64,000 nucleotides of DNA, taken from NCBI GenBank assembly GCA_965217775.1, contig CBDCJH010000002.1, positions 1,568,001 to 1,632,000 on the forward strand. The letters run 5' to 3'. Positions 1 through 24,384 of this stretch are shown here, one piece after another (position 1 is the first letter of the stretch; each line of letters begins with the position of its first letter). This DNA is from Acidobacteriota bacterium. GTDB taxonomy: Bacteria; Acidobacteriota; UBA6911; RPQK01; JAJDTT01. Made by a program: the position numbers and the translations under genes. The notes beneath the pieces are model-generated. The model had not been told where the DNA came from. It saw only the letters and a program-made list of their open reading frames with translations, and made no database searches.

Positions 1-206
1 TCTCTGGATTCGGTTCGGCTCCATACCCTCCACCAGAGCAGCAGCCCACCTCTCAAACCGGAATTTATCGATGCTGGCAAGCTCCTGAGCGTGTGTGATG
101 GTATGGGGAAGGCCAATGTCTTGGGTGTGTTCCCAACGGATTCATCCGGGACATCCTCCCGCATGACTTCAAGGTGGTCTCCAAAGCTCAGTCGATTTTC
201 GTTCAA
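1..206 (-). pseudogene. Internally deleted DNA methyltransferase/endonuclease-fusion passenger gene of the IS1595 element (runs off window)
   Basis: TTG at 206 overlaps the transposase stop (TTGA). 206-135 reads LNENRLSFGDHLEVMREDVPDESV, like N4/N6-MTase N-termini but with no DPPF following. In another frame 90-1 reads AQELASIDKFRFERWAAALVEGMEPNRIQR, like the C-terminal nuclease-type domain of such fusions. Confidence 0.55.
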
Positions 207-1153
207 CCCACCAAATCCTTGTAACGCAGCCGCTTTCCCACCATCCGGTCAGCGACCAGGGCCATTTGATCCAACGTGTCCATGCGCCTTAGGTTGTGAC
301 GTGCGGCAAACTCTCCAACGTATCGGTCGGTGTGCTGTTCCGAGAAGTGGTGAAAGGTTCCGTGGTAACTCCGCTTCAACATCGACCAGAACGATTCGGC
401 TCCGTTGGTGTGGCAGTTGCCTTTGACGTACTCCTGAAGAGAATGCTTGACCGTCTCGTGATTGACAAGCCGGCCGTAAGAGGTTGAATCGTCGGTGTAG
501 ATCTTGGCATCTTCTCCCACGTGCTCCAAGACGAAACGGGAGAGGGTTTCAGACTTGGTGTCAGGGACGACTCGGGCCGACACTTGGTTGGAGGGGCGAT
601 CTTTGACGGCAGCCACGGCCGTCTTTCCAACGGCTCCACGTCCCTCCAGTTTGGCGCGTTTGGCCTTTGGCATATTCTTCCGCTTTCCGCCGAGATACGC
701 CTCGTCAGCCTCGACCGGGCCGGAGAACAGGGCCATTCCAGTCAGGTTCAGACCTTTCCGTATCCGGTGAGCAAGGTGCCAAGCCGTCTTCTGTGTTACG
801 TCCAGGTCACGATGCAGCTTCATGGAGGAAACGCTCTTGAGGCTGGTAGTAAGGAGGTAGGTCGCAAGCAACCAAGTCTGATAGCCGAGTTTGGAGGACT
901 GCATAACCGTCCCGACCCGGACGCTGAACCGCTTGCCGCAATCGCGGCAACGATACGGCATGGAAGGATGCTTGGCTCCGGTCTGGACGTTGGTGGAGCC
1001 GCAATGGACGCAACAGACTTCCTCCGGCCACCGCCGCTTTATGAACCATTCCTCAGCGGCTTTATCGTCGGGAAATCTCTTGAAGAATCCGCGCAGTGAA
1101 AGTCCCTCTCGGAACGCCTTGCCGGGTGCCTTGTTCCGTGTCTCGTAACTCAT
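203..1153 (-). CDS. IS1595-family DDE transposase
   Basis: Zn ribbon CVHC...CRDC, HTH SSMKLHRDLDVTQKTAW, catalytic VEADEAYLGG / IYTDD / HTNGAESFWSMLKR; ATG at 1153 preceded by AGGAGG. Confidence 0.95.
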   Translation of the reverse strand: MSYETRNKAPGKAFREGLSLRGFFKRFPDDKAAEEWFIKRRWPEEVCCVHCGSTNVQTGAKHPSMPYRCRDCGKRFSVRVGTVMQSSKLGYQTWLLATYLLTTSLKSVSSMKLHRDLDVTQKTAWHLAHRIRKGLNLTGMALFSGPVEADEAYLGGKRKNMPKAKRAKLEGRGAVGKTAVAAVKDRPSNQVSARVVPDTKSETLSRFVLEHVGEDAKIYTDDSTSYGRLVNHETVKHSLQEYVKGNCHTNGAESFWSMLKRSYHGTFHHFSEQHTDRYVGEFAARHNLRRMDTLDQMALVADRMVGKRLRYKDLVG

Positions 1154-1282
1154 TGTATCCTCCTGACTTACAAGACATATTATATAGGAAAGTACCGGGA
1201 TTGTCAACCCCTACGGGCAACCTTTTCGGCACTTTCGTATATAATCCCCATAATCTGAATGACAACATTTTATTCAAGAAGT

Positions 1283-19702: not shown

Positions 19703-20971
19703 CTATTCCTGGATGCGGTAGAGTTGCGTCGTCGTGCGTAGGAAGAGCGCTCCGTCGGCCACCGCCGGAGAGGCCATGAAGCCGTCGTCCAACTGGTTTC
19801 TGGCCAGAATCTCAAGCGTCTCCCCCGGTTTGATGATGGTGGTTTGACCGTCCTCGTCGAAGAAGTGAATTCGGTCGCTGGCGTAAAGGACAGAGGCAGA
19901 GTGGTGGCCACCGATTCGGCCCTTCCAGATCTCCTGTCCGCTCTTGAAGTCGAGGCAGGTGGCGATCCCGTCATTGCTCATCATGTAGACCCGCCCCCCG
20001 GCCAGAACCGGGGAGGAGTGCTTCGGAGAGCCGCGGGCGTACTTCCACGCGACGTGGGTTTCAGTCACATTGCCCCGGCCACCGAGACGGACGCCCCAGA
20101 GCTGGGCCGTGCCCCCAATGTATCCCGTGCTGATCCCGACCTGGCCGTCGGAGTAGAGGGTCCGCGGGGCCGAGGAGTGACCCCCGTGGCTGATCTGCCA
20201 GATCTCGCTTCCGGTGCGGGGATCATAACCATAGGCTCCCTTGGCGCTGGGACTGATGAGTTGCGGCTCTCCCCGGAAATCGACCACCAAGGGTGTATTG
20301 TAAGCCTTGCGAAAGTCTCCCGACTGGCGCGGGCGGCCGTTCTCGTCCAGGTCGCCGTAGTCGACCGAGCGAAAGGTCACCCACCGGTTGGCGCCGGTCG
20401 TCTTGTCCAGAGCCACCACGTACTGAACGTCGGCGCCGTCCATGTGCAGGAAGAGGAGATCCTTCCAAAGCACGGGAGAAGAGGCCGGGCCACGCCAGTG
20501 GTCGCAGGGGAGGTCCCGGCGTTGCCAGAGGACCTGGAAGGTTCCGGTGTCAAGACAGGCGGTCCCGTAACTCCCAAAATGGACATAAACCCGACCTTCC
20601 TCGATGGTCGGGGAGGGACTGGCATAGGTGTTGATGGGGTTGCTCAGGGGACGAGGATTGGCAACGTCGAAGAGCTTCCGATCCAGGAGAATCTGTCCAC
20701 TGTCCCGGTCGATGCAGAGCACCGACAGGACCTTGCCGTCCTCCGTGGCGGTGGTGAGCCAGACCTGTTTTCCCCAGATCACCGGAGAGGACCAGGCACG
20801 GCCGTGAATCGGCGTCTTCCATCGAACGTTGAGGGTCTCGCTCCAGCGCAGGGGCAGGTTCGCGGCCTCGGACACACCGTCCCGGCCAGGGCCCCGGTAA
20901 TCGGGCCAGTTGCCGAACAGGCAGACGCTGGAAAAGCACGCGGCCAAGAGCAGGATCGGCATTTTTCTCAT
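19703..20971 (-). CDS. Secreted PQQ-binding-like beta-propeller protein (copy 1)
   Basis: Same motifs; colinear close paralog of 18422-19690. Confidence 0.88.
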   Translation of the reverse strand: MRKMPILLLAACFSSVCLFGNWPDYRGPGRDGVSEAANLPLRWSETLNVRWKTPIHGRAWSSPVIWGKQVWLTTATEDGKVLSVLCIDRDSGQILLDRKLFDVANPRPLSNPINTYASPSPTIEEGRVYVHFGSYGTACLDTGTFQVLWQRRDLPCDHWRGPASSPVLWKDLLFLHMDGADVQYVVALDKTTGANRWVTFRSVDYGDLDENGRPRQSGDFRKAYNTPLVVDFRGEPQLISPSAKGAYGYDPRTGSEIWQISHGGHSSAPRTLYSDGQVGISTGYIGGTAQLWGVRLGGRGNVTETHVAWKYARGSPKHSSPVLAGGRVYMMSNDGIATCLDFKSGQEIWKGRIGGHHSASVLYASDRIHFFDEDGQTTIIKPGETLEILARNQLDDGFMASPAVADGALFLRTTTQLYRIQE

Positions 20972-21016
20972 TACTTCTTCGCCTTCATGAACGGAACGAC
21001 GGGCCCTGCCGGATTC

Positions 21017-21760
21017 TCAGTCGGACGCGGACCAGTCGGGTGCCGGACCCCAGCGCTCCGGCCAATCGACAGCGGCCAGATCGGCGGTGAGCGGATGCCA
21101 CAGATCGATCTTCTGCCTCATGACGCCCAGGTTGTTGGGCATGTCGAATTTGCTCGGAAGAGGCTCCACCCGGCCGGGAACCCCCTTGACGAAGCTCTTC
21201 CTGGGAACGTCACGGTGCACCACCGCTCCCGCCGCGATGAAGCTGCCCTCCCCGATGGTGATCCCGGGAAGAATGGTGCAACCGCCGCCGATGACCACTT
21301 CGTCTTCGATGGTGGCGCCGCAGGGCGTGGGCATGACGTCGTATCGGCAAGGCTCTCGATCGTTCAGGAAGATGACGCCCGGTCCCACGAAAACGTGGTC
21401 GCCGAACCAGGTCCGGGTGGGGATATAGGTGTGGGCCATGACCCGGACCCCGTTTCCCATGCGGACGATTCCTTCCACCACCGAGTGGTTGAAGATGGTG
21501 CAGTAGTTCCCGATCTCGACCTTGGCCCGGATGACCGCGTAGAGACCGGTCTGGAAGTAGTCGCCGATCCGGGTGTCGCCATAGATGACGGTCCCTTGCC
21601 GCAGGATCCCGTGGCGGCCGACCCGGGCCGGACCGCAGTCCCGGTGATAGCGAAAACCGACGGTGACTTCGGGCTCGATGAAGGTGCCCTCACCGATGAC
21701 GGCGTTCTCGAGCTGGGTCTCCCGGCCGGTGCGCTGATGGTGGGTCTGACCGTCGCTCAT
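21017..21760 (-). CDS. Hexapeptide-repeat acyltransferase
   Basis: LbH repeats, VFVGPGVIFLND, ILPGITIGEGSFIAAGAVV..DVP...GVP; GGAGGA RBS. Confidence 0.88.
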   Translation of the reverse strand: MSDGQTHHQRTGRETQLENAVIGEGTFIEPEVTVGFRYHRDCGPARVGRHGILRQGTVIYGDTRIGDYFQTGLYAVIRAKVEIGNYCTIFNHSVVEGIVRMGNGVRVMAHTYIPTRTWFGDHVFVGPGVIFLNDREPCRYDVMPTPCGATIEDEVVIGGGCTILPGITIGEGSFIAAGAVVHRDVPRKSFVKGVPGRVEPLPSKFDMPNNLGVMRQKIDLWHPLTADLAAVDWPERWGPAPDWSASD

Positions 21761-21793
21761 GCGGGTTCCTTCCTCCGAACGGACTTATGGAAT

Positions 21794-21895
21794 GGGGCTT
21801 ATATTCCTAAGTGCCCTTGGCATACAGTTCTGGCACCACGCTTTCCCCAACGAGATACGTTCCGGTACCCAGGGCAAGAACCCCAGCCCTGTGAA
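21794..21895 (-). ncRNA. Putative TnpB omegaRNA (reRNA) scaffold overlapping the tnpB 3' end
   Basis: Minus strand: CAGGGC/GCCCTG stem whose loop GTTCT can pseudoknot with downstream AGAAC; GGTACC..ACG/CGT GGTGCC stem; position typical of TnpB guide RNAs. Boundaries approximate. Confidence 0.6.
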
Positions 21896-22982
21896 TGTTC
21901 AGGGCGGCATTGTGGTCCCTGTCCATTCTAAGTCCGCAGGCCCTGCACCGGAAGGTTTCGCTCCGCCCTGGATCGTGGCGGGCGCCGCACCGGTGGCAGT
22001 CCTGCGATGTATATGCGGGATTCACTTCTACGAACTCCCGACCGGCCCATTCTGCCTTATACTGGAGTTGATTCCGCAGAAGCCCCCATGATTGCGTCAT
22101 TATTTCTCGATTCAGCCCCTTCTTCTTCGAGCCCTTCGTTACCATCCCTTGGATGTTCAGCTTCTCCACAGCGATCAGACCGTGCTCACGAATGATCCTG
22201 CTGGAGAGACGATGGCAGGCATTACGGTTTCGGACCGCTTCCCGGTGACGGAGCCGAGATAGCTGTACGATCCGCTTCCGTCTGGTCTTGGAAGTCTTCG
22301 TGCACCTGGAGACCTTTCTCTGCTGCTTTCGGATCCCCGCCCAGTCCCGTCGATTCCGTTCGATCCTCTCACCCGTGGACAGCACCGCTCGCTTGCGGAC
22401 TCCCAGGTCGATCCCTACCGAAGACTCGCATTTCGGTAGCGGCGGCTTCTCCACCTCGTAGGTCAGGTCCACATACACCCGGTTCGGCTTGCGGACGATC
22501 CGCATCACCTTCAACGGGCATCCGTCCGGCAACGGCCGGGACGGAAAGATCCGGATCGTCGGGAAGCCCTTGGGCCGGATGGCGTAGCCCCGAGCCCGCT
22601 TCTTCACCATCGTCGCCTTGGGGTCGACGACGTCGATGGTCTCCATCCTCGCCAGGGGCCGGAACCGAGGATACCCCGGCTTCTCCCCCGCCTTGCAGCG
22701 ACGGAAGAACGCCTTGAAGGCCCGGTCCAACCGCATCAACATCCCACGCTCCGCCTTGACCGCCACCGACCCGAGCCCCTCCGGATCGTCCTTCCTCTGG
22801 GAGGTCAACCCCTTCATCTGATCGTACAGGGTCACACCGTGTTCCTCGGATTCCCAGGCCGTCCTGCGTTCCTCCAGTGCAGCGTTGTACAGCCGATTCA
22901 GGATGGACCTCACCCGGTCCAACCGCCGGATTCCACCCTTGGACAGCTTGGCTCTGCACTGGATAGTTGCGTGGACTTTCAT
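21807..22982 (-). CDS. tnpB: RNA-guided endonuclease TnpB
   Basis: RLYNAALEER, KPGYPRF, RuvC GIDLG / AVEKLNIQGM / DRDHNAALNI, Zn finger TSQDCHRCG...CRACG. Confidence 0.95.
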   Translation of the reverse strand: MKVHATIQCRAKLSKGGIRRLDRVRSILNRLYNAALEERRTAWESEEHGVTLYDQMKGLTSQRKDDPEGLGSVAVKAERGMLMRLDRAFKAFFRRCKAGEKPGYPRFRPLARMETIDVVDPKATMVKKRARGYAIRPKGFPTIRIFPSRPLPDGCPLKVMRIVRKPNRVYVDLTYEVEKPPLPKCESSVGIDLGVRKRAVLSTGERIERNRRDWAGIRKQQRKVSRCTKTSKTRRKRIVQLSRLRHREAVRNRNACHRLSSRIIREHGLIAVEKLNIQGMVTKGSKKKGLNREIMTQSWGLLRNQLQYKAEWAGREFVEVNPAYTSQDCHRCGARHDPGRSETFRCRACGLRMDRDHNAALNIHRAGVLALGTGTYLVGESVVPELYAKGT

Positions 22983-23145
22983 GGTAGGAATCGTAACCCA
23001 TCAGCCTGAATTCTCGGCACTTACATATATAATCCCCTATAGAATCCTGTCGGCTCCGGACATTCTGTCCTTCCCGGCGGAAGGACGCAACGAGGAGACT
23101 TGACCAGGGTTCTGGGGTAGCCGTTCCCAAGCATGCATCACAGGA

Positions 23146-24384
23146 TCAATGGCGTCTGCGCACCGGAAGAGCCGTCCGAGCCTCATGTTCGCGGATCATC
23201 TGCCCGTGAGTGACGATCTTTGCAAGGTAGCTTTCGGTGTCGAAGTCCAGAAAACGGTCCGGGGAGAACTCGGCAGCGTCGATGCTGGTATTTCCATCCA
23301 CCATGTATTCCGCCAGGAGGAACCCGGCGACGGGATGGTAGCCGAAGCCGCCGGAGTTGAAGGTGACGGCCAGATAGAGTCCCGGCAAGGCGTCCACCGG
23401 GCCGATATTGGGCAGAAAGTCCAGGGCGTAGCTCACCAGACCCACGCGATGGTAGTCGATCTCGACCCCTTCGATCAGGGGGAGCCGGTCCCGAACCGCC
23501 TCCTGGATGAAGGGCAGGGAACGGGGATCGGGGACGAGCTCGGTGAGCCGGAAGTCGGGTCCGGGCCGCTCGATCTGCACCGCCTCGTGGGCGCCGGTTC
23601 CCAGCAGGACGCGATCATCCTCCGTGGGACGGTAATAGACGCCCTTGGAATCGTCGTTGGTGGCCGGAAGCCGGGGCGGATGGCCCAAGGGCATGGTGAC
23701 CCATCGTTCGTGAACGAAATTGCGCACCGGCAGCGGCTGACCCGCCTCGGCCATCAGCGAATTGGCCCAGGCATTCACGGTGCAGACCACCGAGTCTGCC
23801 CGCAGTTCACCTGATTCCCGGGTCCCAACGCCCGTGACCCGTCCGCCTTCGATCAGGAACTCCTCGATGGTCACGCCTTCCCGGATTTCCACGCCCATCT
23901 CCCGGACCTTGGCGCTGAGCGCGGGAAGATAGCGGTCCGGTTCGCTGTAACCGCCGCGCAGGTCCAGCACGCCGTACTCGTCGTCACGAATCCGAAGATC
24001 GGGGAATCGCTCCTCTATCTGTTGCCGGCGGAGCACCAGAAACCGGGCTCCCGCACGCCGGTGCATCGGGTGGAGCCGGCGGGCCCGTTCGAACTGCTGG
24101 GAGTCCAGCAGATTCAGGCAACCCACCTGGTGAAAGTCGTAGTTCTCCAGGATCTTGTCGAACCGCTCGAAGATGTCGAAGGTGATTCCTCGCGCCCGGC
24201 TGGCCCCCTCGGTGGCCATCATCATGGTGTTGATGGCCCCGGACCGGCTGCTGGAACCGTCGCCCACACGGCCCTTGTCCAGGAGCAGGATCTTCCGAAC
24301 ACCCTTGTCGGCCAGATGGAACGAGGTGCTCAATCCGGCGATCCCGGCGCCGACGATGATCACCGACTGTGACGTGTTCGCCAT
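23146..24384 (-). CDS. FAD-dependent oxidoreductase (DAO/sarcosine oxidase beta family)
   Basis: IVGAGIAG, GSSSRSGA, PNIGPV, SGGFG. Confidence 0.88.
   Translation of the reverse strand: MANTSQSVIIVGAGIAGLSTSFHLADKGVRKILLLDKGRVGDGSSSRSGAINTMMMATEGASRARGITFDIFERFDKILENYDFHQVGCLNLLDSQQFERARRLHPMHRRAGARFLVLRRQQIEERFPDLRIRDDEYGVLDLRGGYSEPDRYLPALSAKVREMGVEIREGVTIEEFLIEGGRVTGVGTRESGELRADSVVCTVNAWANSLMAEAGQPLPVRNFVHERWVTMPLGHPPRLPATNDDSKGVYYRPTEDDRVLLGTGAHEAVQIERPGPDFRLTELVPDPRSLPFIQEAVRDRLPLIEGVEIDYHRVGLVSYALDFLPNIGPVDALPGLYLAVTFNSGGFGYHPVAGFLLAEYMVDGNTSIDAAEFSPDRFLDFDTESYLAKIVTHGQMIREHEARTALPVRRRH

Follow-up and report, generated by a model that had tools for sequence, protein, structure and literature searches.

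TnpB nucleases have long been tied to IS605 and IS607 transposons, in which scarless excision explains how an element benefits from a nuclease acting on the empty site. IS200/IS605 elements insert 3′ of a fixed site of 4–5 nt. IS605 elements carry no inverted repeats, leave no target duplications, and have subterminal hairpins and a ..TCAC end. In the ISDra2 TnpB–omegaRNA system, the RNA shares sequence with the 3′ end of its gene, and the guide-adjacent bases form a pseudoknot with an apical loop. Passages of Yoon et al. (2023 NAR, PMC10711439) report this pairing, over five guide-adjacent nucleotides, for ISDra2 and IS607 TnpBs, and describe for the IS607 TnpB of ISXfa1 a scaffold that absorbs a fixed right-flanking nucleotide and a TAM of GGG.

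Links with DDE transposons have also been described. Passages of Altae-Tran et al. (2023 PNAS, PMC10691335) present, at survey level, the DDE-1 to DDE-6 branches of TnpB, which are called rare (also in PMC13565253); in these, tnpB lies inside inverted terminal repeats with its 3′ end near the element end, and solo copies share their ends with transposase-bearing elements, indicating mobilisation in trans. The main text of PMC10691335 names the IS630 family and contains no occurrence of IS1595, and PMC13565253 names ISL2, IS630, and IS1031. The latter, a 2026 review, makes the case that OMEGA nucleases bring little gain to DDE elements, the empty-site benefit being less obvious than for IS605. 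In eukaryotes, according to passages of Yoon et al. (PMC10711439), Fanzor1 and Fanzor2* have the inverted repeat of a DDE transposon within the guide RNA scaffold, their RNA extends past the element end into the flank, and many of the elements are non-autonomous and encode the nuclease only; a fixed duplication (TA, TTAA) is absorbed into the scaffold, and the Fanzor1 pseudoknot is lost.

The locus described here, in the 64,000-nt stretch of DNA that was analysed (the window), has tnpB as its only cargo between 22-nt inverted ends (window 23037..21794, minus strand). We consider it probable that this is a tnpB-only element moved in trans by an IS1595-family DDE transposase, with an omegaRNA that contains the terminal repeat, a guide taken from the flank, and a TAM in the left flank. 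As in the DDE-associated TnpBs, inverted repeats enclose the gene, the 3′ end of tnpB is less than 250 bp from the element end, and solo copies share their ends with a transposase-bearing element; the present case differs in that transposase and tnpB never occurred within one element among the copies examined, and in having a scaffold structure, a repeat-tip pseudoknot, and a flank motif, which the passages of PMC10691335 do not contain. It parallels the Fanzors in the placement of a transposon repeat within the predicted scaffold, in a predicted RNA that extends into the flank, and in its nuclease-only form. Unlike the Fanzors, it has a bacterial host, a variable 8-bp duplication of which the first base alone is fixed, and a pseudoknot kept on the repeat tip. 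The invariant base of the flank may belong to the scaffold as in IS607 TnpB, by analogy alone, and the motif on the opposite side is G-rich as in ISXfa1, but IS607 is mobilised by a serine recombinase and this element by a putative DDE transposase. Full-text literature searches, judged on titles and abstracts, returned no description of a TnpB–IS1595 association. DDE-linked TnpBs are already published; what is new here is a predicted scaffold variant using an IS1595-type end. The locus is a compact, multi-copy, and testable case of a scaffold that absorbs a foreign transposase-binding end and keeps its pseudoknot, and it bears on how the logic of guide and TAM copes with a variable duplication.

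A tnpB element between IS1595-type ends

The encoded protein matches PF01385 (E = 1.1e-17) and PF07282 (E = 3e-26), both above the cut-off, and thus contains the RuvC core and the zinc-ribbon TNB domain of the family. The ISDra2 TnpB structures 8bf8 and 8h1j match it with an E-value of about 4.5e-32. In an alignment of 10 proteins (the window TnpB and nine relatives), D192, E273, D354/D356, and the zinc-finger cysteines are conserved, and the acidic residues align to the GxDxG, E, and DRDxNAA motifs of ISDra2 TnpB. These residues, which we take to be the catalytic RuvC D-E-D triad, occupy the canonical positions, so that family, triad, and zinc finger are those of IS1341-type solo tnpB and ISDra2. 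Homologues with at least 69% identity were detected in five of the eight other genomes of the genus and in none of 52 genomes outside it. The next relatives beyond this genus-level family share at most 48% identity, and a metagenome scan revealed none closer (80 loci, all at or below 48%); the set available for covariation is therefore confined to one genus. The features of the locus are collected in the table below.

Table. Features of the TnpB element, its predicted RNA, and its putative IS1595-family partner (window positions).
Feature	Position	Strand	Evidence or remark
Non-autonomous TnpB element, 1,244 bp	21794..23037	-	homology to 11 other same-genome copies (93–98% identity) stops at the outer repeat ends
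tnpB ORF, 391 aa, intact	21807..22982	-	Pfam OrfB_IS605 and Cas12f1-like_TNB
Left terminal inverted repeat, GGGGATTATATATGTAAGTGCC	23016..23037	-	inverted-repeat search; consensus of copies matches the 1,762-bp IS1595-family repeat at 21/22
Right terminal inverted repeat	21794..21815	-	inner part supplies the 3′ strand for hairpin 3; AGCCCC at 21799-21794 is the pseudoknot partner
Left copy of 8-bp target duplication, ATTCTATA	23038..23045	-	one mismatch to the right copy
Right copy of target duplication, ATTCCATA	21786..21793	-	putative first guide bases
GG immediately 5′ of the left duplication	23046..23047	-	putative TAM-like motif
omegaRNA stem 1, CAGGGC/GCCCUG, apical loop UGGGGUUCUU	21870..21891	-	covariation; GGGGUU at 21884-21879 is the 5′ strand of the pseudoknot
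omegaRNA stem 2, GGUACC/GGUGCC, lower helix ACGU/GCGU, inner hairpin UCUC/GGGA	21832..21869	-	covariation
Hairpin 3, last tnpB codons with inner repeat	21800..21826	-	weakened in the window copy: A at 21805, T in the others
Putative guide, about 16–20 nt of flank	21774..21793	-	starts at, or 1–3 nt inside, the duplication
Autonomous IS1595-family element, 1,762 bp (G000:C2:1567488-1569249)	1..1249 (part)		PF12762 match and ends

The region first noted is the 3′ (right) end of the element on the minus strand. The inverted-repeat search pairs 21815-21794 with 23016-23037 over 22 nt at 82% complementarity, and the tnpB stop codon (TAG, 21809-21807) lies inside the right repeat, as the preliminary description of this region had stated; it is 13 nt from the element end. 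It had also reported that the TCAC-type right end of IS605 is missing. This is the case, and with 22-nt inverted repeats and 8-bp duplications present, the element lacks the hallmarks of IS200/IS605 (IS1341 group) transposons. The window copy looks slightly decayed, with one change each in both repeats, in hairpin 3, and in the duplication, and its activity may be lost, given the weakened hairpin, the altered repeats, and the imperfect duplication.

The genome of the window contains 12 copies that share 93–100% identity and whose homology ends at the repeat tips. The duplication is a perfect 8 bp in 10 of them, carries one mismatch in the window copy, and is absent from one. The latter, L008 (G000:C2:1186780-1188023), is a full-length element with the flanks AATGGATT and AAACATAT and no matching duplication, which suggests recombination between copies or a rearrangement of the flank. 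The tnpB ORF is kept intact in most copies. In the over-length copies L012/L015 (G000:C2:4647309-4648714, 1,406 bp) and L011 (C2:2358592-2359856, 1,265 bp), the tnpB frame is interrupted and the duplications are still perfect. The orthologous intergenic spacer is present without the element in the relatives G001–G006; the spacer of G004 has a length that fits a single duplication copy and a diverged sequence, and an exact empty site was not recovered among these genomes.

Nine matches to DDE_Tnp_IS1595 (PF12762) were detected in the genome of the window, one of them at C2:1568293-1568724, within the 1,762-bp element that begins 512 bp to the left of the window and occupies window positions 1-1249. 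This element is flanked by a perfect 8-bp duplication (ATAATCTG), and its repeats are GGGGATTATATACGAAAGTGCC. The TnpB element and the 1,762-bp element have their first 22–26 nt in common, the repeats agreeing at 21–22 of 22 nt and at 24 of 26 nt, and perfect 8-bp duplications flank all 16 full 1,762-bp copies from three genomes (a wider count listed 20). The TnpB element thus shows both the inverted repeats and the 8-bp duplication of the IS1595 family. It resembles that family and its MITE-like derivatives in its GGGG-type inverted repeats, its AT-rich 8-bp duplications, and the occurrence of DDE_Tnp_IS1595 elsewhere in the genome; unlike the IS1595 parents, it carries an RNA-guided nuclease and a predicted guide RNA as cargo and inserts with a one-sided G|A motif. 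Both element types are present in G000 and G006, and G002 contains the IS1595 element, with no TnpB homologue found by the window query. Shared ends, multiple copies, and co-occurrence point to mobilisation by an IS1595-family transposase, and the 1,762-bp element is the likely source of a transposase acting in trans. Two quick inverted-repeat scans around the PF12762 matches revealed no autonomous partners for subfamilies B–E. In G002, two IS1595-family copies (L148 and L155, G002:C1:4122494-4124255 and 4124265-4126026) stand in tandem 9 bp apart, one inserted directly beside the end of the other.

The predicted omegaRNA scaffold and its pseudoknot

Covariation was analysed in an alignment of the last 135 nt of the element plus 10 nt of flank; its 25 distinct right ends represent seven subfamilies, all within one genus. 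The preliminary description had proposed two stems on the minus strand, CAGGGC (21891-21886) with GCCCTG (21875-21870), enclosing the loop TGGGGTTCTT, and GGTACC (21869-21864) with GGTGCC (21837-21832), enclosing an inner hairpin. Both are present and covary among the 25 relatives: paired cells make up 100% of stem 1, 99.3% of stem 2, and 99.5% of the inner helix, and each of these three structures contains three pairs changed on both sides. The 20 nested pairs are paired at 99–100% and nine of them show changes on both sides, and pairing falls to 31–49% in a sliding control in which the 3′ partner is moved by 1–3 columns. The variation comes from few lineages, and each compensatory change probably represents a single event. 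The end of tnpB thus overlaps a structured RNA region with covarying stems, as expected of an omegaRNA, and a conserved (A/G)GAAC segment forms part of the predicted scaffold. A covariance model of the nested stems, a check that the preliminary description had proposed, recovered the scaffold in two distant relatives, L168 (93.5 bits; loop GGGGU, tip AGCCCC) and L184 (40 bits; loop GGGAAU, tip AGUUCCC), the latter with a 14-nt inverted repeat at both ends. Rfam searched over 21000-24000 with E-values up to 10 gave a chance lncRNA match alone and no omegaRNA family. The minimum free energy (MFE) fold of the whole scaffold of the window copy mixes alternative pairings (z = -1.65; 12 of 200 shuffles fold equally well), so that folding of this single sequence is uninformative.

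The repeat was originally said to follow the stems directly, which is approximately right: 16 nt separate it from stem 2. It was also said to fold on itself (GGGC../..GCCC); this is the MFE structure only in the window copy, which has a T-to-A change at 21805, and 23 of the 25 sequences fold differently. In these 23, a hairpin forms between AGAAC and the tip and leaves the last 6–8 nt, including the repeat tip, unpaired. The 5′ strand of this hairpin 3 consists of the last tnpB codons or the stop region and its 3′ strand of the inner repeat. It forms at the right end of 10 of 11 elements with -7 to -11 kcal/mol, compared with 0 to -6.5 kcal/mol for the left end read in the same sense, and its 5′ strand varies among subfamilies in step with their differing repeats.

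The free tip pairs with the apical loop of stem 1. The loop GGGGUU and the tip AGCCCC (columns 48-53 with 143-148 of alignment A2) are paired in 96% of cells, with two pairs changed on both sides. Both changes derive from subfamily B2, in which loop GGGAAUU faces tip AAUUCCC; subfamily E combines GGGGC with GCCCC, and subfamily B has a U-U mismatch at position 5 of the pseudoknot (4 of 25 sequences). An apical-loop pseudoknot with about five guide-adjacent nucleotides, as in other omegaRNAs, is hence present, with modest support from few independent events: mainly one lineage of two sequences, together with L168 and L184 read by eye. IS605-type relatives with 30–37% identity, which end in ..GTCAC, show a corresponding arrangement, the loop of stem 1 being complementary to bases 3–7 nt before the guide in seven of the ten that were scored, with covarying loop/tail pairs GACG/CGUC, GACA/UGUC, and GGCUA/UAGUC. 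Among the remainder, another loop was picked by the fold in two and one had a mismatch; an eleventh relative has no TCAC end. As the loop–tip pairing occupies the canonical position of the TnpB pseudoknot, the guide should begin at the duplication, an expectation that combines this position with canonical TnpB geometry (PMC10711439).

The preliminary description had instead paired GUUCU of the stem-1 loop with AGAAC (21831-21827). The AGAAC segment is there, the two are complementary in the window, and 88% of cells are paired; an (A/G)GAA(C/G) segment is conserved in the IS605-type relatives too, and the two pairings need not overlap, GGGG being free to pair with the tip and UUCU with AGAA. 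Nevertheless, none of the five pairs shows a change on both sides, two positions are each unpaired in five of the 25 sequences, and AGAAC falls in conserved Pro-Glu-Leu codons, so its conservation may reflect coding. A pseudoknot of this kind, in place of the loop–tip pairing or stacked beside it, is rather unlikely.

The broader proposal of the preliminary description, that the repeat serves as the 3′ part of the scaffold, the guide starts from the duplication, and the TAM lies in the opposite flank, gains computational support from three results: the covariation of the right-end-specific hairpin 3, the loop–tip covariation, and the one-sided G|A motif considered below. Its main inference about the scaffold therefore stands, and the base-pairing details, namely the pseudoknot and the fold of the repeat, had to be replaced. 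A transposase-imposed end thus appears to have been built into the omegaRNA scaffold. The transcript is envisaged to pass the 3′ end of tnpB, then the right repeat, and to continue into the flank, giving rise to an omegaRNA whose scaffold would span the final ~110 nt of the element, include C-terminal codons of tnpB, and end at the repeat tip. It would comprise stem 1, stem 2 with its inner hairpin, the (A/G)GAAC segment, hairpin 3, and the loop–tip pseudoknot.

The flank motif and a putative restoring cycle

Of the 30 insertions with a left end found, 23 have a duplication with at most one mismatch. The motif set started from 37 distinct right flanks, of which seven lack the left end and seven have a poor duplication, leaving these 23 independent insertions. 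Read in tnpB orientation, 22 of the 23 have a G immediately 5′ of the left duplication and 15 have a G at position -2, in a genome with a G content of 31%; position 1 of the duplication is A in all 23, and the first base past the right tip (CCCC) is A in 36 of the 37 right flanks. When the elements' own right ends are read in reverse, 10 of 23 have the G and 8 have the A (p = 2e-4 and 2e-6). The IS1595 ends give G in 13, A in 20, and both in 11 of 40 (p = 7e-7, 1e-5, and 6e-8). By these controls, the motif is tied to tnpB and its orientation and not to the transposase. It is suggestive of a TAM-like imprint (..GG), and the fixed A may be the first guide base or, by analogy with IS607, a base absorbed into the scaffold. 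Several independent duplications begin with AAAC (AAACAGTT, AAACCGTT, AAACAATA, AAACGAAA, AAACGATT, and AAACGAAT) and others with ATT, which hints at a preferred target longer than G|A.

Typical TAMs are T-rich and 4–5 nt long, and the short G|A motif is unlike them. The motif might instead reflect an insertion preference of the transposition complex on this particular element, the RNA structure being real and TnpB being a passenger or having another role without a homing benefit. Weak target preferences are frequent among DDE transposases, duplications are AT-rich in both element types, some targets resemble the repeat tip (GGGATT..), and the review cited above (PMC13565253) expects little gain from OMEGA nucleases for DDE elements. 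However, in the autonomous elements, which use near-identical ends, the frequency of the motif (11/40) is at the background level. The motif is, moreover, strictly one-sided relative to tnpB, and most copies retain an intact tnpB ORF. Such a preference is accordingly an unlikely source of the motif.

We thus return to the reading in which G|A marks a TAM and the start of the guide. An IS1595-family DDE transposase would recognise the near-identical ends in trans and leave 8-bp duplications, and the guide would consist of the duplication and the adjoining flank, starting at the duplication or 1–3 nt into it. In the empty allele, the guide sequence would be preceded by the GG of the left flank, followed by A, and could be cut by TnpB. 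In the occupied allele, it would be preceded by ..GCCCC at the right junction, and the match at the left junction would be just 8 nt. The element would be restored once the cut allele is repaired from the occupied copy. As G|A sites are enriched, insertions may be retained or multiply at such sites only, and this imprint in the flanks suggests that the nuclease shapes which insertions persist. Beyond this, we tentatively propose, as a possibility with somewhat less than even chances, that TnpB and its omegaRNA have become adapted to a DDE transposon whose duplication varies: the repeat tip would serve as the pseudoknot strand, the duplication as the start of the guide, and G|A as the record of the TAM, only those insertions being kept whose empty allele TnpB can cut. 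If true, the G|A record would amount to evidence, at the level of populations, that a bacterial cut-and-paste DDE element can rely on RNA-guided restoring repair. The sequences further suggest a small (391 aa) nuclease whose TAM is possibly short and G-containing.

The preliminary description had also offered an alternative in which the scaffold stops short of the repeat, leaving the repeat (GGCACUUAGGUAUAUAAGCCCC) to act as the guide that directs TnpB to IS1595-type ends. These ends would then be cut. The repeat makes up the final 22 nt of the element and is common to IS1595 copies, whose ends are preceded on the inner side by a T-rich ..TTTC. Against this, the repeat is engaged in hairpin 3 and the loop–tip pseudoknot, both of which are conserved. 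The right repeat mismatches the IS1595 ends at positions 8, 9, and 18 and the left repeat of the element at 9 and 18; these mismatches would lie in the first 12 nt of such a guide. The G|A motif outside the element would be left unexplained. The alternative is disfavoured and must be regarded as very improbable. That the pairings are by-products of protein coding or DNA-level signals, and that the locus yields no omegaRNA, is scarcely credible: the scaffold does lie inside the ORF except for its last 13 nt and matches no Rfam family, but 9–11 pairs are compensatory, several of them alter an amino acid (in subfamily B2, for example, Val is replaced by Asn in the loop), hairpin 3 is a feature of the right end, not the left, and the architecture is common to the IS605-type relatives.

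Related sequences and neighbouring genes

Contigs 90–99% alike to the element were found in four sponge metatranscriptome runs of one study; they are assembled contigs and may contain DNA. Two of them continue past the right tip and enter different flanks, X3 record 18 by 29 nt and X4 record 26 by more than 255 nt, and in both the match ends after the A at 21793. The summed depth in X3 is higher over 21855-21956, a difference that is given no weight. As the contigs may be DNA, they define neither an RNA end nor a strand and are not counted as evidence of an omegaRNA. They attest only to the presence, in those libraries, of related elements and of read-through into further flanks that likewise start with A.

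TnpB homologues with 37–45% identity on a SAR202 MAG contig (L076) and on a Rhodoblastus MAG and a metagenome contig (L085/L201) are bounded by perfect inverted repeats of 16–17 nt with unrelated sequences (GAGACGATTTCACAAAT; GTCTCAGTTTGAAATC). No loop–tip match was seen by eye in L085. TnpB elements bounded by terminal inverted repeats may therefore exist with other transposon families, as judged from these ends.

The element of the window is inserted between genes for a DAO-family oxidoreductase and a hexapeptide transferase. A 695-aa open frame on the plus strand (window 19844-21931) overlaps three annotated-looking genes, as well as the 3′ end of tnpB, in antisense, and is probably a chance frame in GC-rich DNA. 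The start codon of the hexapeptide-transferase gene (21760) lies 33 nt downstream of the element on the same strand, and the putative guide overlaps its ribosome-binding region (window 21760-21793). This gene could be driven by read-through from tnpB.
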